This document shows, piece by piece, positions 52,247 through 63,802 of a stretch of DNA of 64,000 nt. The notes under the pieces were generated by a model, which saw nothing but the letters and a program-made list of their open reading frames with translations, did not search any database and had not been told where the DNA came from. Source of the stretch: an uncultured Alphaproteobacteria bacterium (GTDB lineage: Bacteria; Pseudomonadota; Alphaproteobacteria; Rhizobiales; Beijerinckiaceae). Positions within the stretch are counted from its first letter, which is position 1. The number at the start of each line of letters is the position of its first letter. The stretch spans positions 843,720 to 907,719 of the forward strand of contig CAVRWF010000001.1 in NCBI GenBank assembly GCA_963724845.1, in the 5' to 3' direction. A program made the translations under genes and the position numbers.

Positions 52247-52945
52247 ATGCATGTGTCCATCGACCATGACCTGAATGCGCTTTATCCATTTTTACATGGA
52301 ATCGCTCAGGATCCCTCGCGGCTTGACGCCTCGCTGCTTCAGTCTGTTGGAGAGAAGGCGCAAGAGTCCCGCGAAACAAACTCCCGCTTCTTTGAGGATC
52401 AGGGCGCCACACTCGTTGAAGCGTCGCGAGCGGTCGCGAAGGTCTATCGGCGGAGCGGTCGAATGTTTTCAGTCGGCAACGGTGGATCAAGTTGCGACGC
52501 GTCGCATTTTGCAGTGGAATTCGTGCATCCAATAACCGCCGGTCGACCGGCGCTCGCTGTTATCAATCTCATGTCTGACCTGGCGACCATATCTGCAATA
52601 GCGAACGATGTCGGCTTCGATCACATATTCGCACGTCAGTTACTTGCTCATGGTCAGCCCGGCGACGGTCTCATCGGGTTTTCGACGAGCGGAAACTCCT
52701 CAAATCTCATGCTCGCCTTCGCCAAGGCGCGAGAGATCGGTATTACAACGATCGGATTTGCAGGAGGAAATGGCGGAGCGATGGCCGCGAGCGGTCTGGT
52801 GGATCATTGCCTCATTGTTCCAACGACGTCGATCCATCGCGTTCAGGAATGTCACGTCGCCGCATATCATATCCTTTGGGACTTGGTGCATACCCTACTT
52901 GCAGATTATCGCGGCTCCGCGACGTCGAAAGGACACGCGGAATGA
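52247..52945 (+). CDS. GmhA-like SIS-domain protein (phosphoheptose-isomerase fold) embedded in the hyp operon
   Basis: Motifs: VGNGGSSCDASHFAVEF, ANDVGFDHIFARQ, STSGNSSN and RVQECH, as in GmhA/DiaA-type SIS proteins. Its stop overlaps the hypD ATG (ATGA at 52942-52945). Confidence 0.8.
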   Translation: MHVSIDHDLNALYPFLHGIAQDPSRLDASLLQSVGEKAQESRETNSRFFEDQGATLVEASRAVAKVYRRSGRMFSVGNGGSSCDASHFAVEFVHPITAGRPALAVINLMSDLATISAIANDVGFDHIFARQLLAHGQPGDGLIGFSTSGNSSNLMLAFAKAREIGITTIGFAGGNGGAMAASGLVDHCLIVPTTSIHRVQECHVAAYHILWDLVHTLLADYRGSATSKGHAE

Positions 52946-55154: not shown

Positions 55155-56048
55155 ATGTGCGGGCACTGTGGATGCGAAAATGAGGGGAAGGCGACAGTCC
55201 TTGACCTTCAGACCGGCAAAGAGCTCAAGATCAAATCCGATTCCCACGATCATCCTCATGACCAGGACCAGAATCACGATCACGATCACGATCACGATCA
55301 TCAACATCACCATGTGCATGAGGACGGGATCCGGCATCGCCATGCGCTCGAGCAGCAGAATGAAAAAGTGCCAAAAGGTGAAACTATCACGCTCCAAGAG
55401 CGCATTTTGGCAAAGAACGACATAGTGGCCCAGCGCAATCGCGCCTGGTTTCGTGGACGCGAAATACTCGCACTCAATCTTGTAAGTTCCCCGGGGTCGG
55501 GTAAGACGACCTTGCTTGAGCGTACCATCAAGGATCTAAAGTCTGAAATTGAAATGTTCGTTGTCGAGGGGGATCAGGCGACCACGCACGACGGCGAGAG
55601 AATACGCGCAGCCGGCGCGGCGGCAATACAAATAAACACTGGTTCTGGATGCCATCTTGAAGCCGATATGGTCGGTCGAGCGTTGCAGCAATTGAGACCG
55701 AACACCGATTCTGTCGTTATGATAGAAAACGTTGGAAATCTCGTTTGTCCAGCGTTGTTTGATCTGGGAGAACGCTGCAAGATCATTATTTTTTCTGTCG
55801 CGGAAGGAGAGGACAAGCCACTGAAGTATCCCAATATGTTTCGCGCTGCGGCGATCATGATCTTGAACAAGATCGATTTACTTCCGCATATCGATTTCGA
55901 CGTGGAACGCGCTATCGTCAACGCGAGGCAGATTAATCCTGATATCCGTATATTTCAGTTATCAGCGCGAACAGGTGAGGGGCTTGAGGTCTGGTATAAC
56001 TGGCTCAGAGAAGAGGCTAAGGCATCGCAGGGTGCGGCTTTTGGCTAA
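55155..56048 (+). CDS. hypB: Hydrogenase nickel-incorporation GTPase HypB with a His-rich tract
   Basis: N-terminal MCGHCGC motif, an H/D-rich stretch and the P-loop SSPGSGKTT. SD GGAGGGG lies upstream of ATG 55155. Confidence 0.9.
   Translation: MCGHCGCENEGKATVLDLQTGKELKIKSDSHDHPHDQDQNHDHDHDHDHQHHHVHEDGIRHRHALEQQNEKVPKGETITLQERILAKNDIVAQRNRAWFRGREILALNLVSSPGSGKTTLLERTIKDLKSEIEMFVVEGDQATTHDGERIRAAGAAAIQINTGSGCHLEADMVGRALQQLRPNTDSVVMIENVGNLVCPALFDLGERCKIIIFSVAEGEDKPLKYPNMFRAAAIMILNKIDLLPHIDFDVERAIVNARQINPDIRIFQLSARTGEGLEVWYNWLREEAKASQGAAFG
55275..55298 (+). repeat. Hexanucleotide microsatellite (CACGAT)x4 inside hypB, encoding (HD)n
   Basis: Read directly. It is part of the His/Asp-rich metal-binding tract. 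Confidence 0.9.
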
Positions 56049-56386
56049 GTGGATTCAGGCTCCACTTCTATGCTTCGAACTAAAAGTTCGCCCCCGCGCA
56101 CAAGTATGTGACGGAAAGAACCGCAATCGCAGATGAAAGTGGTGGAGGTGACTGCAAATTCCCCTCCACAGTTCTCACAACGGGCGGCTGCCGGTATCTC
56201 AAGGATATTAAGAAACGCGCCTTGAACGCATGTTCCTTCTGCGACAAGTTCGAAGCTGAAGGTCACCGCTTCTGGCAATACTCCTGAGGCGGCGCCTATT
56301 TCGACATTGACTGATCTTACACGTTTACCCTTGGCCGCTTCGCTGGCCAACTCTACAATGCCCTGAGCTATAGCCAACTCGTGCAT
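56045..56386 (-). CDS. hypA: Hydrogenase nickel insertion protein HypA
   Basis: N-terminal MHE motif (MHELAIAQ) and a zinc site CENCGGEF...CDCGS. Confidence 0.85.
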   Translation of the reverse strand: MHELAIAQGIVELASEAAKGKRVRSVNVEIGAASGVLPEAVTFSFELVAEGTCVQGAFLNILEIPAAARCENCGGEFAVTSTTFICDCGSFRHILVRGGELLVRSIEVEPEST

Positions 56387-56420: not shown

Positions 56421-56702
56421 TCAAAGCCGGGGCGATGCTTGCATCGTCTCAAGCTCCGCTTGCGCTTCTCCAAGCTCCGTTAATATTTGAAGAGTACTGA
56501 TGGCTATAGCGTTGTCGATCCGGCTCATGGCGAAGCCGACGTGAACCAGCACCCACTCTCCGACGCAGGTCTCAATAGGATGCTCAGGGTCGACGATGCA
56601 TGACACATTTATCTGCCTTCTCACTCCGCAGATGTCCACCGTTGCAAGCTGGTCCAGGTTGTCATCTATCGAGACAATGCGTCCGGGGATGCCAAGGCAC
56701 AT
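56421..56702 (-). CDS. hypC: Hydrogenase assembly chaperone HypC/HupF family
   Basis: The N-terminal MCLGIPGRIV motif is diagnostic of HypC. Confidence 0.85.
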   Translation of the reverse strand: MCLGIPGRIVSIDDNLDQLATVDICGVRRQINVSCIVDPEHPIETCVGEWVLVHVGFAMSRIDNAIAISTLQILTELGEAQAELETMQASPRL

Positions 56703-56732: not shown

Positions 56733-56840
56733 TCACATGCTGCTGATTTTGATGTAACGGTACAGATCCCTCAGGTTGAACAGGAGCAGCGCGACAACGA
56801 TGACGGCGATCACGATCCAAAAGACTTCCCAGCCAGTCAT
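56733..56840 (-). CDS. 35-aa single-TM micro-protein (MTGWEVFWIVIAVIVVALLLFNLRDLYRYIKISSM), possibly DUF6893-like
   Basis: Below the ORF-track cutoff. SD AAAGGAG lies 7 nt upstream. Its ATG overlaps the endopeptidase stop (ATGA at 56837-56840). Similar tiny TM proteins with a basic R-Y-h-+-h-+-S-M tail occur in actinobacterial hydrogenase loci (from memory). Confidence 0.5.
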   Translation of the reverse strand: MTGWEVFWIVIAVIVVALLLFNLRDLYRYIKISSM

Positions 56841-57376
56841 TGCAGACTCCTTTCGATGTGGCATGGTAACGCGTATTCAGCGGCGCTCGAGCTCGAGGCA
56901 TCCTCTTGGAGGAAAGATGCCACTAGACGCTCTACGACCTCCGCCGCCGATTCGACTGCTACGGATACAGTTCTAGTCAGGCCGAGCAAGCCTTCATCAC
57001 CGCCCAACCTTTCAGGCTCACAGAGGACTAGAACAATCTTTCCGCAGGCTCCTTTGCATCCGGACGCTAATCGTAGCACGGTTGCAGGATCAAGATTATG
57101 CGTGACCATCGCCACATTTTGCAGCGATGGCGTATCAGATGGCTCCACGACCGAGATTGTTCCCGGCGCTTCGCCTCGTTGAGCGGCATCGAGCAGGATG
57201 GCCATACTGTAACCTTCGCTCAAAGCATAGGCTAGGTCGACCCCGCAAATCCCAAAGTCGGATAATTCCACCTCCAACGGCATTGTGCGCGCGGATAAGT
57301 GGCGGATGACCTCAACACCAAAGGCGTCGTCTCCCTCAAAGATATTGCCGATGCCCCCTACAAGAATACGCTTCAT
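56837..57376 (-). CDS. Hydrogenase maturation endopeptidase (HyaD/HupD family)
   Basis: Contains ILVGGIGNIFEGDDAFGVEV and a later LLDA motif, the Asp/His metal-ligand pattern of the family. Confidence 0.85.
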   Translation of the reverse strand: MKRILVGGIGNIFEGDDAFGVEVIRHLSARTMPLEVELSDFGICGVDLAYALSEGYSMAILLDAAQRGEAPGTISVVEPSDTPSLQNVAMVTHNLDPATVLRLASGCKGACGKIVLVLCEPERLGGDEGLLGLTRTVSVAVESAAEVVERLVASFLQEDASSSSAAEYALPCHIERSLQ

Positions 57377-58692
57377 GGACGTGCTTCCGGGTTGATCGGT
57401 TCGATTTCGTCGCGCGAGAAATAGAAGCGGTGACCCGGAAAGCCTGCGGAGCCCAAATCGCTGCCGGGGTCATCAACGAGCGTTACAGCGAAATGCACTC
57501 GATTTTCGAAGTCCCGATCGATCCGTTCAATTTTCGCCAATCTTCCTTTAAGAGCGATGTCAAAGACGTCGCCCCGTGTCTTTGGATTTAAACGAACATG
57601 ACGACCGACTAAAAAGTCTGGCTGCGCATGCGAAAGCCCCGGTGATGGTTTTGAGTGCATGTGAAAAGGTTTCAACGCACCGTGAAGGGCTTCAAATTGC
57701 TGACTGCTCAATGACTCGCACCGGGCAAGAATAGCACTGGTCCGCGGGTCTGTAGCCGCCATCTCAAGTTTCTCAGAATCTGTCATTGTGAGCACGCGTA
57801 AAGTGAGCATTTCGTCGATTTCCGCGCTATCAAAAAATGGACCGTTGCTTTCGGGGGCGACCTTTGGATAGTCGTATAAAATAATTGAGGAGGAGAGGAC
57901 GGTGTCCCGTTTCCCCTCGTCGCCGACCAGAACGGGCCAAGTTCCCTGATTACAACAGTCGCTCGCCGGTTGGCTAAAGTGATCGGGCGGTTCAAGCAAA
58001 GAAACGAACTCACCGCTGGATGTTTGCACCAATGTGTGGGTCGACATAAAAGCGTAATTCTGAGCATCAGTTCTAGAGAGTTGGGACATTAGCGGTAGCG
58101 GGGACCTGTTCTCGATGGTGATGCTAAGACGTAACACGCTATCTGAGATCTCTTTAGCGGCTACTTCTATTTGGCCCTTCAGCAGCCAAGTATTTCTCGT
58201 GATCAAGCCGACGACGGACCCATTACGCGCACGAATTTGTTCGACATTGTTTTGCGGGGGTAGTTCGAAGGTCAGCTGTCTCGAACGCGACAAAACGTCA
58301 GCTACAGAAATATCGGCTGTAAAAATCTCCCGTTCGATTGCCTCGTCCCACGAGACGTATTGTTGGCCGTCGACATCAAGGTTCGCAACAGTCTGATAAC
58401 GCGCCGTATCCAAGGCGTCTTGCTCTTTGTCGACCAACGTTTCGACCTGTCGTCTTTGTGACTGCAGGAAGCGAAGAATTATGTCCAGCTTCGTCTCGGG
58501 TGTCTCCCGAAGCAGAAGAATTTCAGTCTTCATAGTGGAGACTTCGTCCCCGATGCCCTGGTATTCGTCGGGAAAAACGCTTCCGAAGGCCCAGCGGGTT
58601 CGATTTTTTATTGCCGAGGCGCGATAGGGATAAAGCACATATCCTTCATACAAAATTGCGTCGGCGAGCTTCCTGGTGCGATCGGAAATCAT
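57373..58692 (-). CDS. Conserved hydrogenase-locus protein of unknown function (439 aa)
   Basis: Large ORF translationally coupled at both ends (4-nt overlaps). The N-terminus is LYEGYVLYPYRASAIKNRTRWAFG. I recognise no characterised domain. Confidence 0.7.
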   Translation of the reverse strand: MISDRTRKLADAILYEGYVLYPYRASAIKNRTRWAFGSVFPDEYQGIGDEVSTMKTEILLLRETPETKLDIILRFLQSQRRQVETLVDKEQDALDTARYQTVANLDVDGQQYVSWDEAIEREIFTADISVADVLSRSRQLTFELPPQNNVEQIRARNGSVVGLITRNTWLLKGQIEVAAKEISDSVLRLSITIENRSPLPLMSQLSRTDAQNYAFMSTHTLVQTSSGEFVSLLEPPDHFSQPASDCCNQGTWPVLVGDEGKRDTVLSSSIILYDYPKVAPESNGPFFDSAEIDEMLTLRVLTMTDSEKLEMAATDPRTSAILARCESLSSQQFEALHGALKPFHMHSKPSPGLSHAQPDFLVGRHVRLNPKTRGDVFDIALKGRLAKIERIDRDFENRVHFAVTLVDDPGSDLGSAGFPGHRFYFSRDEIEPINPEARP

Positions 58693-59339
58693 AGTGTGTG
58701 TTCCTTCGCTGTCATATCAAGAAGCTGGTTGAGAGCGGCGTCAAAAGTCAGATAGCCGCCGCGTCTTTTGAATTGATGCAGGCGATCGAAAGTGTAACGA
58801 TCGACTTGAAGCCAGTCGCTATGCGGATAATAGAGGTCCATGAGCGACTGCCACACACTCGCCAGCAGTTGGAAAGTCGTCTCCTTGGTCCACGAAATTT
58901 GAGTAACCTGAAGGGGACCATCATCTGCACAGTAAAAGACTGAACCGCTGAAAAGGAACACGAGCGGAATTACGCCCTCGCGAACGCCGCTGAAATATTT
59001 TGTGATTGCTAAATTAAAATCACGCGTGCACGGCGCCGGTAAATATACCTGGGTGTCGTGGTCGAACTCAGGTATCGCGACATTCGCGTGCGTCCACAGC
59101 AGGCTTCTTACTGTTTCACCCCATTGCTGGGGCGAACCGAACAGTTCAACTAGGCGTTCACGTTCACTGGCGTTGTAACTGCGGCGTCCGGGGTCAATTC
59201 GGATTTGGCAGGATAGGAGAATGTTTTTGACACATATTGACGCGCTGTCACTCGTTACGCGCAGAACAAAACGCAACATCGGACATGTCGAGTGTTTTTC
59301 GACTTCCACTTGCTCTATCTCGAAATCAAGTTCAACCAT
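58689..59339 (-). CDS. Conserved hydrogenase-locus protein of unknown function (DUF6084-like)
   Basis: 216-aa ORF overlapping both neighbours. Resembles the DUF6084 family seen in group 1h loci (from memory). Confidence 0.65.
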   Translation of the reverse strand: MVELDFEIEQVEVEKHSTCPMLRFVLRVTSDSASICVKNILLSCQIRIDPGRRSYNASERERLVELFGSPQQWGETVRSLLWTHANVAIPEFDHDTQVYLPAPCTRDFNLAITKYFSGVREGVIPLVFLFSGSVFYCADDGPLQVTQISWTKETTFQLLASVWQSLMDLYYPHSDWLQVDRYTFDRLHQFKRRGGYLTFDAALNQLLDMTAKEHTL

Positions 59340-59964
59340 GGATACAACTTCCGGGATCGATTACTGCGCTTTGGTCCAGGGAATCGAAGAAATCACTTAC
59401 GCCGTTCCATACATCCTGACCTCCGGAAACCCCGCGCCACCGCGTACGAATGAGCCCAACAAGTGCGTAGCATCGGTCGATAGAAACCCGAAAATAGTCC
59501 CGCGCGTTCCTGGTGCGATTAATCAGCAATGCCTCGACATGAGGAGCCATATCGGCGAGCGAAGGATCAATGGTCAAGAGATTATCCCATGCATGCGCGC
59601 TTAGCGCCGACTCCATTGCACCGGCCGGACCAGGATAAATGGCTGTGGCCCTGTCTCCATCGCCGTTCAAGAAGAAAAACACGATGTCGATGGGCAGTTG
59701 CATGCTTTCCCATTCTGAATCGGTGACATGGAATTTGCTCAGGCGAGTTGTTAAAGGGTACACCGCTCGAAATCTCGCGCCGGTCCCAAGAGTCAACGCG
59801 CACCCTTCACAAGCGCAAAGAATACGACGTGTCGAGATTTCTAGGAGATGGCGATGTTGTAAAGGGAGCGGCTTTGAGCACAGTTCACAGGTCTCTGCGC
59901 TCGCTTTTGTATTGACGAAACGCCGGATGGTTGCAACCCAGTTGCTATGCGCTCTGGCGTCCAT
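59332..59964 (-). CDS. Conserved hydrogenase-locus protein of unknown function (DUF5947-like) with an N-terminal Cys cluster
   Basis: CELCSKPL...HRHLL...ILCACEGC is a CxxC...CxCxxC motif. 210 aa. Confidence 0.65.
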   Translation of the reverse strand: MDARAHSNWVATIRRFVNTKASAETCELCSKPLPLQHRHLLEISTRRILCACEGCALTLGTGARFRAVYPLTTRLSKFHVTDSEWESMQLPIDIVFFFLNGDGDRATAIYPGPAGAMESALSAHAWDNLLTIDPSLADMAPHVEALLINRTRNARDYFRVSIDRCYALVGLIRTRWRGVSGGQDVWNGVSDFFDSLDQSAVIDPGSCIHG

Positions 59965-60532
59965 GTTGGCTCACTTCAACGGCCGAAGAGGCGGAAGGCG
60001 TTAAGTTTCTCTGGGCTAGCGACGAGTAGAGATTGAAATCCTCGATAATAATCCTGTCGAGATCCGGCGCCGCTTCGGTCAAGGCTTGTTCGATCTCTGC
60101 AATCAGTCCCGCACGGGCTTCATGAGTCTGTTCGCCGGAGATCGATACCCGAATTCGCGCGGTGGTCTGATCGACATCAATCAAATCCACACGAACCCCT
60201 TGGACGCCCCAATGCGCTCGCAATTCTGCGACTTTTCTTTGCAGGCGTGCTTCGGGTTCCTCTGGATGAAGGCCATGTAACAGGATCACGGCGGCGAAGT
60301 ATTCTTCATCAAGGAGGTTACGCATAAGCAACTCGCCATTTTCTGAATTCTGGCAAATGGTGATGGCTTTGGCGAGTGCAATTCCATGAAGGGTTAGTAG
60401 CGAATCCACCAACTCACGTGCGATACTGTGACAATCATGGTTGTCGACGCTGTTCAGAGCTTCAATCAACGTTTCAATGCGCGATAGACATTGACCCAGT
60501 GCGCTTGTTGGCGTCGACATTCCATCTGTCAT
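59945..60532 (-). CDS. NifU-C-terminal-domain-like protein of the hydrogenase locus
   Basis: LLTLHGIALAKAI...AAVILLHGLHPEEPEARLQRKVAELRAHWG...VDLIDVD...RIRVSISG resembles NifU-like proteins encoded after group 1h large subunits. The expected CxxC position reads SGEQTHE here. Confidence 0.6.
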   Translation of the reverse strand: MTDGMSTPTSALGQCLSRIETLIEALNSVDNHDCHSIARELVDSLLTLHGIALAKAITICQNSENGELLMRNLLDEEYFAAVILLHGLHPEEPEARLQRKVAELRAHWGVQGVRVDLIDVDQTTARIRVSISGEQTHEARAGLIAEIEQALTEAAPDLDRIIIEDFNLYSSLAQRNLTPSASSAVEVSQHGRQSA

Positions 60533-62346
60533 GGCGCGTTTCCGCGCGCAACTCCAAACATCGGAGAGTGCAATGTCTCGAGTGTCTTTCCACCGCCGAT
60601 ATACATATGTACACCGCAGGGCAGGCAGGGATCGAAACTGCGCACAGCGCGCATAATATCGATGCCTTTGAACTTGTCCTGACCATTTTCTTCAAAAATC
60701 GGGGTGTTCTGAACGGCATCCTCATAGGGGCCAGGCGTGCCGTAAATATCCCGCGGCGTCGCATTCCAAGGGGTTGGCGGATAAGGGTGGTAGTTTGCAA
60801 TTTTGCCCTTCCTGATAACAAGATGGTGAGAAAGTACACCGCGGACTGCCTCATGAAACCCGCAGCCGATTGCTTCGTCAGGTACTTTGAAGTCGGTGAA
60901 AGTTTTGGTTCTCCCCGCTTGCACTTCCGTCAGCGCCTTGTCGATGAAATGATAGGCGAGCGCCGCACAATAGGCCTGGAAATAGGTTCGCGCCCGGTCA
61001 CGCTCGATCGCGTTGCTCCATTTTGGAATCTTCCATTCGAATTCCTTCTCTGGCTTGAGCGCAGTTTTCGGCAAATATATCTTGACGCTTTCGCCTGTCG
61101 CCTTGACGTATCCAACGTCAACTAATCCGGCGAGCGCTGTCGCCCACAAGCGAGCGATTGCTCCGCCGCCGGTGTCAAGCGCGAGGTGATCGCCCGTTCG
61201 CCTATCGAGCCAACGAGGGCACATCACCCACGAGTAGTGGCCGTCGAAATTGCGCTTTTGCGGTCGTGGAATAGTGGTCTGATTCCAAGGGTGCTTCTGG
61301 TCCACTGGATTGCCGAGCGGGTCGGACTTAACGAATGTCTCGCAATTGTCCCAATCATCATAGAACGAGCTTCCAAGCAGAATGCGAATGTTCAAGTTGA
61401 TATCAACCAGGTCCGTTGTGACCAGCTTGCCATCAACTACTACGCCCGGGGTGACGAACATCGCACGGCCCCAATCCGTCATCGTCTTATATTGATAGTC
61501 GCATTTATCGGGATCTTGGAAGGCTCCCCAGCAACCGAGCAAAATGCGACGTCGTCCGACTTCCTCGTATCCGGGAAGGGCTTCATAAAAGAAGTCGAAT
61601 AGATCGTCGTGCAATGGCACGCATTTTTTCATAAACTCAACATATCTGACCAAACGCATCAGATAGTCGGTGAACAACTGCACCGAAGGCGTGGTTCCGA
61701 CTCCGCCAGGATATAGCGTCGATGGATGGACATGGCGTCCCTCCATGAGGCTGAACATTTCACGGGTGTAACGGCTGACAACAAGTGTTTCGCGATAAAA
61801 ATCTCCAGTGAAGGGATTGAGCGCCGTCATAATGTCGGCAATGGTGCGGTAACCGTGGTCGGCCGAGTGGGGCGCGAGTGTAGTTTGTGCTTTTGCCCAA
61901 ACCTTGGGGTTCGTCTCTTTCACCATCTGCTCGCAAAAATCTACACCGACTAGATTGTCCTGATAAATGTTATGGTCGAACATATATTCAGCCGCTTCGC
62001 CAAGATTGACGATCCATTCAGCTAGGGCGGGCGGCTTGACGCCATAAGCCATGTTTTGGGCGTAGACTGAGCAAGTGGCGTGGTTGTCGCCACAAATCCC
62101 GCAAATTCGACTGGTAATGAAGTGTGAGTCGCGCGGATCCTTTCCTTTCATAAACACGCTATACCCGCGGAATATGGACGACGTGCTATGGCATTCCGCA
62201 ATGCGCCGCGCATCGAAGTCGATCTTCGTGAAAATTCCGAGGCTGCCGACGATGCGAGTAATTGGGTCCCAGTTCATCTCGACCAAATTGGGTGACGATT
62301 TGCTTTGAGCGGGTCGAGTTCCCGACACTACGTCGTCCATGATCAA
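60529..62346 (-). CDS. hhyL: [NiFe]-hydrogenase large subunit, group 1h (formerly group 5) type
   Basis: The L1 motif TSRICGICGDNH and L2 motif SFDPCLPCGVH are present verbatim. 605 aa, with a C-terminal tail after the His for endopeptidase cleavage. Confidence 0.95.
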   Translation of the reverse strand: MIMDDVVSGTRPAQSKSSPNLVEMNWDPITRIVGSLGIFTKIDFDARRIAECHSTSSIFRGYSVFMKGKDPRDSHFITSRICGICGDNHATCSVYAQNMAYGVKPPALAEWIVNLGEAAEYMFDHNIYQDNLVGVDFCEQMVKETNPKVWAKAQTTLAPHSADHGYRTIADIMTALNPFTGDFYRETLVVSRYTREMFSLMEGRHVHPSTLYPGGVGTTPSVQLFTDYLMRLVRYVEFMKKCVPLHDDLFDFFYEALPGYEEVGRRRILLGCWGAFQDPDKCDYQYKTMTDWGRAMFVTPGVVVDGKLVTTDLVDINLNIRILLGSSFYDDWDNCETFVKSDPLGNPVDQKHPWNQTTIPRPQKRNFDGHYSWVMCPRWLDRRTGDHLALDTGGGAIARLWATALAGLVDVGYVKATGESVKIYLPKTALKPEKEFEWKIPKWSNAIERDRARTYFQAYCAALAYHFIDKALTEVQAGRTKTFTDFKVPDEAIGCGFHEAVRGVLSHHLVIRKGKIANYHPYPPTPWNATPRDIYGTPGPYEDAVQNTPIFEENGQDKFKGIDIMRAVRSFDPCLPCGVHMYIGGGKTLETLHSPMFGVARGNAP

Positions 62347-62349
62347 CTC

Positions 62350-63429
62350 CTACAAAGGATAGGTCTGCTCGGGTCTGTCGGGACGGAAGCCTGTTGTGCT
62401 CACTGGCCGGTTGTGCCGCCACTTCGGCTCCTTATTGAGAGTGTTGTTGGTGAGGCGACGCAGATTACGAATAAGGACGCCATAGGGCTTCACCAGGACC
62501 GAGGAGATTCGGGCGCCAGGAGGCTCGTCCATGAAGGGCATGAATTTATCCGGGAATCCAGGCATTGTGCAGCCGATGCAAATGCCTCCGACATTGGGAC
62601 ACCCGCCAATGCCGGATATCCACCCGCGCTTTGGTACGTTGCATTGAACGACCGGTCCCCAACAGCCTATTTTAACCAGACATTTCCGGGAGCCATACTC
62701 CTTGGTGAAATCAGCCTGCTCGTAGTAGGCAGCTCGATCGCAACCCTGATGCACAGTCATCCCAAACAGCCATTTGGGACGCAGTACATCGTCAAGGGGA
62801 ATCATTGGCGCCAGCCCCGCCAACTGACGTAAAAGGTATAAGAGCGTCTCCATGAAATTATCGGGCTGAACCGGGCATCCGGGTACGTTCACAATTGGCA
62901 GTCCCGCTTTGGATTTCCAATCCCAGCCGAGATAATCAGCAATGCCCATGCAACCTGTCGGATTGCCTTTCATCGCGTGAATGCCCCCGAATGTTGCGCA
63001 TGTCCCAGCGGCGACAATGCCGAGCGCTTTCGGCGCGAGACGATCAATCCACTCGGTAGTTTTGATGGGTTGATCCGTTGTGGTGTCGGTTCCTAACGCC
63101 GCCCAATATCCTTCGCCGCTCAAATGTTCATTAGGGATGGATCCCTCGACGACGAGCACGAAATGTTCCAGTTCGCCTCGCGCTGCTTTGTGAAACCAGG
63201 ACAGAAACTCATCGCCAACTTCATATGCGAGGACGGGATTATGCAAATGTACTTTTGGCAAACCGGGTACGGAACCAAGAATTACGTCTTCGATGCTGGG
63301 CTCGCTCGCGGCTGTAATAGACACGCTGTCGCCGTCGCACCCCAATCCAGCTGTAATCCATAATATGTGAACTTCTTCGATTGCAGGTTTGTGTTGCGTC
63401 TTACGACCGTAGGGAGTCTTTTCATCCAT
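62350..63429 (-). CDS. hhyS: [NiFe]-hydrogenase small subunit, group 1h type (no twin-arginine signal)
   Basis: Contains ITAGLGCDGDS, GTCATFGG, PGCP and CIGC Fe-S cysteine patterns. The N-terminus MDEKTPYGRKTQHK lacks an RRxF Tat motif. It ends 3 nt upstream of the large subunit start. Confidence 0.9.
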   Translation of the reverse strand: MDEKTPYGRKTQHKPAIEEVHILWITAGLGCDGDSVSITAASEPSIEDVILGSVPGLPKVHLHNPVLAYEVGDEFLSWFHKAARGELEHFVLVVEGSIPNEHLSGEGYWAALGTDTTTDQPIKTTEWIDRLAPKALGIVAAGTCATFGGIHAMKGNPTGCMGIADYLGWDWKSKAGLPIVNVPGCPVQPDNFMETLLYLLRQLAGLAPMIPLDDVLRPKWLFGMTVHQGCDRAAYYEQADFTKEYGSRKCLVKIGCWGPVVQCNVPKRGWISGIGGCPNVGGICIGCTMPGFPDKFMPFMDEPPGARISSVLVKPYGVLIRNLRRLTNNTLNKEPKWRHNRPVSTTGFRPDRPEQTYPL

Positions 63430-63802
63430 GAAACACCCCTATCGACTAGCGTTACCTTCGCAAAGGGGACAAGCCGCCATATTTTCGAAACGTAAGGCGC
63501 ACAATTTTGGTTCCCAATCGCGAAGCCTATGATGAGATGAAGTCTTGTGGGATTGATTGTATCCAACACTCGCGATGTCGCAATGTGATCCTCATTGAGA
63601 CTTTCGATGCGTTGACATGGTGGAGAGTTTCTTTGCTAATATGCATCGCCAGCACATTTGCTCGCGCGTCGCAACACGAAACGCCCAAGCTTTGGCCGCC
63701 GGGCGGCATGCGGTTGTTCGTCTTGATGAGGTTTTGAGCACCAGAGCTTTCATCCGATTCTGCAACTTCAGACCAGGTCATCGCAATGGAGCTAATCGGC
63801 AA

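Follow-up and report, generated by a model that had tools for sequence, protein, structure and literature searches.

What do the four genes between the large-subunit gene and the maturation endopeptidase gene contribute to a group 1h [NiFe]-hydrogenase? Much of the H2 that organisms take up from the atmosphere is consumed by enzymes of this group, which also help soil bacteria to survive (PMC6883350, PMC7174314); within their locus, the four genes stand out as the part still lacking an explanation. We address this question in a stretch of 64,000 nucleotides (nt), hereafter the window, from an uncultured Alphaproteobacteria bacterium of the Beijerinckiaceae (GenBank assembly GCA_963724845.1, contig CAVRWF010000001.1, positions 843,720 to 907,719). 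The genes, here called g1 to g4, lie on its minus strand, as do all features given below unless stated otherwise: g1 at 59945-60532, g2 at 59332-59964, g3 at 58689-59339 and g4 at 57373-58692. Their identity is secure: they are the known accessory gene set of group 1h (Hhy/AH-type) hydrogenases, of the PHG066-069 type. As to their function, our analysis leans towards an assembly platform specific to this isoenzyme, which would work in soluble form in the cytoplasm until the proteolytic step, rather than a subunit of the finished enzyme or an electron carrier.

A gene block that accompanies group 1h hydrogenases

A first-pass annotation of the window, made from the sequence alone, had described four genes of 195, 210, 216 and 439 amino acids (aa) that overlap their neighbours by 4-20 nt between hhyL and the endopeptidase gene. 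The listing of open reading frames (ORFs) returns exactly these genes and coordinates. Direct reading of the junctions gives overlaps of 4 nt for hhyL/g1 (ATGA), 20 nt for g1/g2, 8 nt for g2/g3, and 4 nt each for g3/g4 and g4/hupD (both ATGA). Chance ORFs can be discounted: databases contain more than 5,800 homologues for g4 alone, and synteny of the whole block extends to 80 genome loci.

Conservation of the gene set beside other 1h hydrogenases had been named in the first-pass annotation as a test of its reading. We scanned one genome per species and recovered 80 loci encoding a g4 relative, spread over at least seven phyla (Acidobacteriota, Actinomycetota, Verrucomicrobiota, Pseudomonadota, Planctomycetota, Chloroflexota and others). 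Sixty-two of them have at least 4.5 kb of upstream sequence and are therefore informative. The set stands next to a 1h large subunit in all 62: hhyL and g1 are found in every one, g2 in 61, g3 in 61, and hupD again in 62, one missed ORF having been recovered by tblastn. All 60 full-length neighbouring large subunits carry both the L1 and the L2 motif of group 1h. The order hhyS-hhyL-g1-g2-g3-g4-hupD is near-universal among the loci, and the nearest relative of the window locus, whose g4 is 80% identical, shares both the operon and its overlaps.

Some loci depart from this order. Six Verrucomicrobiota loci (L008, L013, L015, L020, L021 and L062) read g2-g3-g4-hupD-hhyS-hhyL-hypB-hypA-g1, so that the g2-g3-g4-hupD block is intact ahead of hhySL and g1 is separated from it, after hypA. 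In a Ktedonobacteraceae locus (L026), g3 directly follows g1, and no DUF5947 gene is detectable. A Steroidobacteraceae locus (L077) is without the DUF6084 gene (g3) and has a shortened g4. The latter two loci may serve as natural knock-outs for comparison.

The same gene order, i.e. small subunit, large subunit, NifU-family protein, DUF5947 protein, DUF6084 protein, hypothetical protein and protease, is found in the operon of the actinobacterial-type hydrogenase (AH, group 1h/5) on megaplasmid pHG1 of Cupriavidus necator H16, whose proteins are about 40-50% identical to those of the window. There the protease gene is followed by hypF, hypC, a SIS-domain gene and hypDEAB, whereas in the window hypF, the SIS-domain gene, hypD, hypE and hypB lie on the strand opposite to the hhyS-hupD operon. 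Mycobacteria have a matching block, composed of HhyE plus three hypothetical proteins. PHG066-069 were described as four ORFs of unknown function (PMC4377017), a 2026 comparative paper still calls genes of this type hypothetical, and our literature search found no paper discussing a function for DUF5947 or DUF6084. Hence the earlier statement that the roles of the four proteins are not biochemically defined still holds, but the set itself had already been described (PMC4377017), and HhyE is genetically essential for Hhy activity in Mycobacterium smegmatis (PMC6883350). To this known set our analysis adds the degeneracy of g1, eight invariant ligands in g2, a separable module in g4, the conservation of the HhyL tail and the absence of membrane segments.

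Features of the four proteins and of the HhyL tail

The product of g1 (195 aa) is a degenerate member of the HhyE family, with a helical N-domain, an HGLHP motif and an Nfu-fold domain lacking the cluster-binding cysteines. Although g1 itself falls below the gathering threshold of Pfam NifU (PF01106), with no match at E <= 0.01 and only a sub-threshold match to DUF211, its distant homologues carry PF01106 (E 9e-13 to 6e-4), and the family profile matches Nfu structures such as PDB 2z51 (E 1.3e-18). The NifU-C-like identity proposed for it is thereby borne out. M. smegmatis HhyE (MSMEG_2718) resembles g1 in its position directly after hhyL and in its helical N-domain, HGLHP motif and Nfu-fold domain. 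However, HhyE of the mycobacterial type has the Nfu CxxC motif and a C-terminal domain of ~140 aa with two further CxxC motifs, and g1 has neither. Where canonical relatives align GSCxGCxSS, the Nfu cluster-binding motif, g1 reads SISGEQTHE (residues 130-138, 60119-60145), as the first-pass annotation had noticed. The C-terminal domain is replaced by a 36-residue tail without CxxC, and the only cysteines of the protein are C15, C34 and C60. Judging from these residues, g1 is unable to bind a cluster through the Nfu CxxC.

This loss is widespread. Among 73 g1 homologues, 26 have the Nfu CxxC together with the C-terminal two-CxxC domain, 19 have the Nfu CxxC alone, and 28 have lost it. The last class comprises every proteobacterial locus, many Acidobacteriaceae, some Actinomycetota and C. 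necator PHG066 (192 aa). Because the CxxC is lost in 28 of the 73 while the core residues L88, H89, P90, R96 and P156 stay conserved at 98-100%, the alignment implies that a function common to the whole HhyE family cannot depend on a cluster held by this motif. Three of these residues belong to the HGLHP motif (residues 86-90, 60263-60277), in which L88 is kept in 98%, H89 in 98% and P90 in 100% of the sequences. The hint of a role outside Fe-S chemistry, which the first-pass annotation drew from g1 alone, is thus strengthened and extended to 28 of 73 homologues, including that of the C. necator operon whose enzyme structure is solved. A precedent for a retained, cluster-free Nfu fold is offered by plant NFU2/CnfU (PDB 2z51), whose second Nfu domain has likewise lost the CxxC (GPAAG, against GACGSCPSS in the first domain); the g1 family profile aligns with each of the two domains. 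In that protein the degenerate domain stands in tandem with a functional one in a single chain, whereas g1 has no functional copy attached. One g1 homologue (P0128) is annotated as "acetolactate synthase small subunit", a label that looks wrong.

For g4, the 439-aa, PHG069-type protein in which the first-pass annotation recognised no domain, searches of Pfam and NCBIfam indeed find no family. Its AlphaFold2 (AF2) model has a mean predicted local distance difference test score (pLDDT) of 81.3 and a predicted template modelling score (pTM) of 0.71. According to the model, the body (residues 1-345, 57658-58692) would comprise a helix at the N-terminus, a large domain rich in beta strands at 53-268 and, at 293-339, a bundle of helices. 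It is joined to a C-terminal module (residues 355-439, 57376-57630), predicted as an SH3/Tudor-like small barrel (365-432), by a linker modelled with low confidence (337-354). The body carries an invariant N-terminal motif, A.LYEGY.LYPYR....KN..RW.FG...P (residues 12-41, 58570-58659), which is modelled at moderate confidence (pLDDT 56-79) and is 96-100% identical across 81 sequences from at least seven phyla. An acidic DxxEIDE segment is near-invariant in the same 81 sequences. Foldseek matches of the model cover the barrel only (PetP, the C-domain of nitrile hydratase beta, eS4 and a Tudor domain). DrmA (7s9v), the top match over the full length, was set aside as uninformative (TM 0.26, root-mean-square deviation 22 Å).

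The barrel module is joined to the body in 54 loci. In 16 it forms an ORF of its own, flanked by that of the body and by hupD, the gene of the HycI/HupD-type maturation endopeptidase (56837-57376, 179 aa; Pfam HycI and TIGR00072). In a further 8 loci the module precedes HupD in a single fusion protein, and the new gene boundary is consistent among them. A library of 1.84 billion representative proteins yields 925 relatives of the module. Ten of these library proteins were sampled for a module located away from the C-terminus; in nine of them Pfam HycI follows immediately after the module, and the sample shows no further partner. The barrel is therefore a separable unit, and the only other fusion partner seen is the endopeptidase. 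We keep these fusions as evidence, since the 8 loci agree in the boundary and independent library proteins show the arrangement as well. Two other kinds of fusion are not relied on, namely a g3-g4 fusion in a locus with many frameshift-split genes (L025) and fusions of the whole of g4 to HupD (L013 and L027); fusions of this sort would arise from a 1-nt error at an ATGA overlap. As a separate observation, the JGI label "hydrogenase maturation protease" on many g4 homologues (P0004 and others) looks wrong and was possibly propagated from module-protease fusions.

The substrate of this endopeptidase, HhyL (60529-62346, 605 aa; Pfam NiFeSe_Hases), is the group 1h large subunit. It matches HofG of the C. 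necator 1h enzyme (PDB 5AA5) with 1206 bits; TSRICGICGDNH and SFDPCLPCGVH, its L1 and L2 motifs, are quoted as conserved in group 1h/5 enzymes (PMC5364354). Downstream of the CGVH cleavage motif lies the C-terminal propeptide MYIGGGKTLETLHSPMFGVARGNAP (residues 581-605, 60532-60606), which is predicted to be removed by the endopeptidase; the HofG chain in 5AA5 terminates at the residue aligned to HhyL H580, i.e. at the predicted cleavage site. Across 1h large subunits the cleaved tail is 21-32 residues long. Its M1, G6 and H13 are found in 61 of 61 sequences and P15 in 59 of 61, and each of Y2, G4, K/R7, S/T14 and P15 is kept in at least 58. For a peptide that the mature enzyme no longer contains, such conservation across phyla seems unusual, and it makes the propeptide a candidate recognition element.

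The second protein, g2 (210 aa), is the equivalent of PHG067 and MSMEG_2717. Its DUF5947-like identity is confirmed by Pfam DUF5947 (PF19372; E 6.8e-62, 208.7 bits against a cut-off of 25, model positions 1-176 of 177). The CxxC...CxCxxC motif noted earlier is present as C26, C29, C50, C52 and C55, and it turns out to be part of a larger invariant set that includes H37, H39 and C165. The candidate metal-ligand cluster C26-x2-C29-x7-H37-x-H39-x10-C50-x-C52-x2-C55 (59800-59889) has seven residues that are 100% invariant in 76 sequences, with identical CxxC-x7-HxH-x10-CxCxxC spacing in 75 of them. The eighth candidate ligand, Cys165 (59470-59472), lies in the C-terminal alpha/beta domain and is also 100% invariant. 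The AF2 model (pLDDT 87.8, pTM 0.83) resembles no fold in the PDB by Foldseek (best E 0.017, TM <= 0.21). The secondary-structure prediction assigns C26 and C29 to a knuckle and the pairs H37/H39 and C50/C52 to neighbouring strands; at C55 a helix begins. By inference from this arrangement, C26, C29, C52 and C55 would form a zinc-ribbon or treble-clef site, and H37, H39, C50 and C165 a second, 2His/2Cys site that may bridge to the alpha/beta domain. Among 65 DUF5947 members no match to rubredoxin or ferredoxin families of Pfam appears even at E <= 1; the weak secondary matches are to zinc-finger and zinc-ribbon families only, and we treat them as noise.

The DUF6084-like identity of g3 (216 aa; the equivalent of PHG068) is equally firm in Pfam DUF6084 (PF19562; E 1.2e-74, 250.8 bits against a cut-off of 25, model positions 1-211 of 213). 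Its invariant residues, D107, Y115, P125, F130, G132, W150, W163 and P172, are aromatic residues, glycine and proline plus one Asp, and no Cys or His is invariant in the family. No sequence relative of g3 is found among PDB chains or in any other Pfam family.

In searches with each sequence and each family profile, g2, g3 and g4 match no PDB chain, and weak-signal Pfam scans of 67, 33 and 65 family members (of g4, g3 and g2, respectively) reveal no consistent second family. Profile-profile tests reject both mutual paralogy of g2, g3 and g4 and homology of these three to the SIS protein. Cryptic homology of g1-g4 to HypA-F, HupD, HhyS and HhyL was likewise rejected, with hhalign probabilities below 10% against ten profiles. 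No transmembrane segment is found in g1-g4 (maximum Kyte-Doolittle value in a 19-residue window, 1.52). By sequence comparison the crystallised 1h enzyme (5AA5) is without PHG067-069, because no PDB chain resembles them; a g4 homologue in that structure would have been detected, since PHG069 (476 aa) is 40.6% identical to g4.

Assembly, electron transfer or support of the finished enzyme

We favour an assembly platform because the genes always stand between the large subunit and its protease (the rearranged Verrucomicrobiota order apart), because part of g4 migrates onto that protease in one lineage, and because the phenotype of an hhyE deletion is not rescued by an artificial acceptor (PMC6883350). 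Further reasons are that g1-g4 are soluble and absent from the finished enzyme, that the conserved HhyE core needs no cluster, and that a propeptide so well conserved could act as a recognition element. The platform would act on the HhyL/HhyS precursor alongside HypA-F, until the final cleavage by HupD. The g4 body may hold the HhyL precursor, and its tethered SH3-like module might dock the protease or the conserved propeptide. As a putative zinc-ribbon protein, g2 would handle or sense metal at its second 2His/2Cys site, and g1 and g3 may serve as adaptors.

Extra proteins for assembling one particular O2-tolerant membrane-bound hydrogenase in air are familiar from other systems, e.g. HoxL/O/Q/R/T/V, HyaE/HyaF and HybE, and these isoenzyme-specific maturation factors are encoded between the structural and the hyp genes. 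The likeness of g1-g4 to them is one of concept only, without sequence relationship: the g2, g3 and g4 families match none of the Pfam families of the Hox/Hya/Hyb maturation factors even at E <= 1. A more far-reaching version of the assembly reading, which we put forward tentatively and with some doubt, is that g2, g3 and g4 constitute an unrecognised class of isoenzyme-specific maturation machinery. In such machinery the g4 body would clamp the HhyL precursor while the module recognises the propeptide (M-Y-L-G-x-G-K...H-S-P) and/or docks HupD, gating cleavage. DUF5947 would then be a new metal-binding fold that combines a structural zinc ribbon with a 2His/2Cys site delivering or proof-reading the metal.

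Several observations weigh against an assembly role. The g4 module is encoded immediately upstream of hupD, and fusion of adjacent, overlapping genes is the easiest rearrangement; the fusion evidence is therefore weaker than it would be for unlinked genes. The full HypA-F and HupD set is already present, which leaves no obvious step for four more proteins, and the case for g2 and g3 is an indirect one. In Methylacidiphilum fumariolicum SolV, as its locus is described in the literature, the 1h genes hhyS, hhyL and hupD have consecutive identifiers with no intervening genes, and the enzyme is nevertheless active, of high affinity and membrane-associated (PMC5364354, PMC7174314). About 9.5% of hydrogenase-positive species are without HucE or HhyE (Islam et al., PMC6883350), and the L026 and L077 loci do without g2 or g3. 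Finally, canonical HhyE keeps its CxxC motifs, and an Fe-S function may exist in those lineages.

The first-pass annotation had offered electron relay to the respiratory chain, O2 protection and 1h-specific maturation as options; of these, the evidence favours maturation over electron relay. A relay is the working hypothesis of the literature for HhyE and PHG067 (PMC6883350). In it, one or more of the proteins, chiefly DUF5947/PHG067 and HhyE, would carry a redox centre, accept electrons at the distal HhyS cluster and hand them on to the quinone pool or the respiratory chain, in place of the cytochrome b subunit that 1h enzymes lack. The ORF listing indeed shows no cytochrome b gene in the operon; the eight invariant Cys/His residues of g2 would offer such a route, mainly via DUF5947, and canonical HhyE supplies a CxxC plus its C-terminal pair of CxxC motifs. 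In M. smegmatis, deletion of hhyE abolishes Hhy activity and is complemented by the gene; the authors of that study prefer electron relay but regard a part in assembly or as a scaffold as no less compatible with the result (PMC6883350). The activity is, however, also lost in a zymogram with an artificial acceptor (PMC6883350), which argues against a relay, as do the lack of cluster-binding cysteines in g1 and in 28 of 73 loci, the lack of a membrane segment in any of g1-g4 and their absence from the solved enzyme. Moreover, the weak secondary matches of DUF5947 are all to zinc fingers and zinc ribbons, not to rubredoxin or ferredoxin, and the g4 fusions point to the protease rather than to a redox partner. 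We thus consider a relay unlikely.

Unlikely as well, and in our estimate slightly more so, is the proposal that g1-g4 stabilise, oligomerise, membrane-tether or O2-protect the mature enzyme and so modulate its affinity, without a role in cofactor insertion. A structural scaffold is among the options of Islam et al. (PMC6883350), the apparent affinity of 1h enzymes rises on membrane association, without a known basis (PMC7174314), and in g3 and the body of g4 many surface-type residues are invariant, without a catalytic signature. Yet the SolV enzyme is membrane-associated and of high affinity despite a locus without these genes (PMC5364354, PMC7174314), hydrophobic segments are absent from g1-g4, none of the four is in the 5AA5 crystal, and the link of the g4 module to the protease would be left unexplained. 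A last reading, in which the genes share the transcript but are otherwise passengers or regulators without a functional relation to the enzyme, is highly improbable. The hypothetical status of g2-g4 would fit such a view, but the block keeps its order and content over at least seven phyla, each protein has dozens of invariant residues, and Pfam finds no DNA-binding or signalling domain in the set.

Surroundings of the block and significance

The small subunit of the hydrogenase is encoded by hhyS (62350-63429, 359 aa; Pfam Oxidored_q6 and NiFe_hyd_SSU_C), and its first 40 residues contain no twin-arginine (Tat) motif; together with the lack of transmembrane segments in g1-g4, this speaks against a membrane link and for the assembly reading. 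A sigma-70-like promoter match, TTGCGA-16-TACAAT, is located at 63556-63583 (minus strand), ~130 nt upstream of its start. Between hhyS and hupD no convincing minus-strand terminator was found; the sole match to the terminator consensus lies inside g3 (58962-58977) and is within chance expectation. This picture is consistent with one transcript from hhyS to hupD. Beyond hupD, the same strand encodes hypC (56421-56702, 93 aa) and hypA (56045-56386, 113 aa).

Several side observations concern these neighbours. Eight Acidobacteriota loci (L009, L035, L038, L044, L048, L051, L059 and L074) have a second small-subunit-like ORF ~2.5-4 kb upstream of the genuine hhyS. The RefSeq label "hydrogenase expression protein HypE" on the 1h small subunit of pHG1 (L081, 4226-5281) looks wrong. 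The SIS-domain gene of the window (52247-52945, plus strand), whose product has a GmhA-like phosphoheptose isomerase fold, is embedded in the hyp cluster; such a gene stands beside hypC/hypD in most 1h loci across phyla and on C. necator pHG1, and is sometimes duplicated in Actinomycetota. HypB contains a long His/Asp-rich stretch, HDHPHDQDQNHDHDHDHDHQHHHVHEDGIRHRH (about 55230-55330, plus strand), presumably for nickel storage or binding.

The analysis turns the label "conserved hypotheticals" into specific, testable features, namely the protease-linked module of g4, the eight-ligand metal site of DUF5947, the cluster-free HhyE variant and the conserved propeptide. The minimal accessory set is relevant to the expression of O2-insensitive hydrogenases in other hosts. 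If g2-g4 do form a new maturation machinery, it would permit an O2-insensitive enzyme to be assembled in fully aerobic, starving cells.

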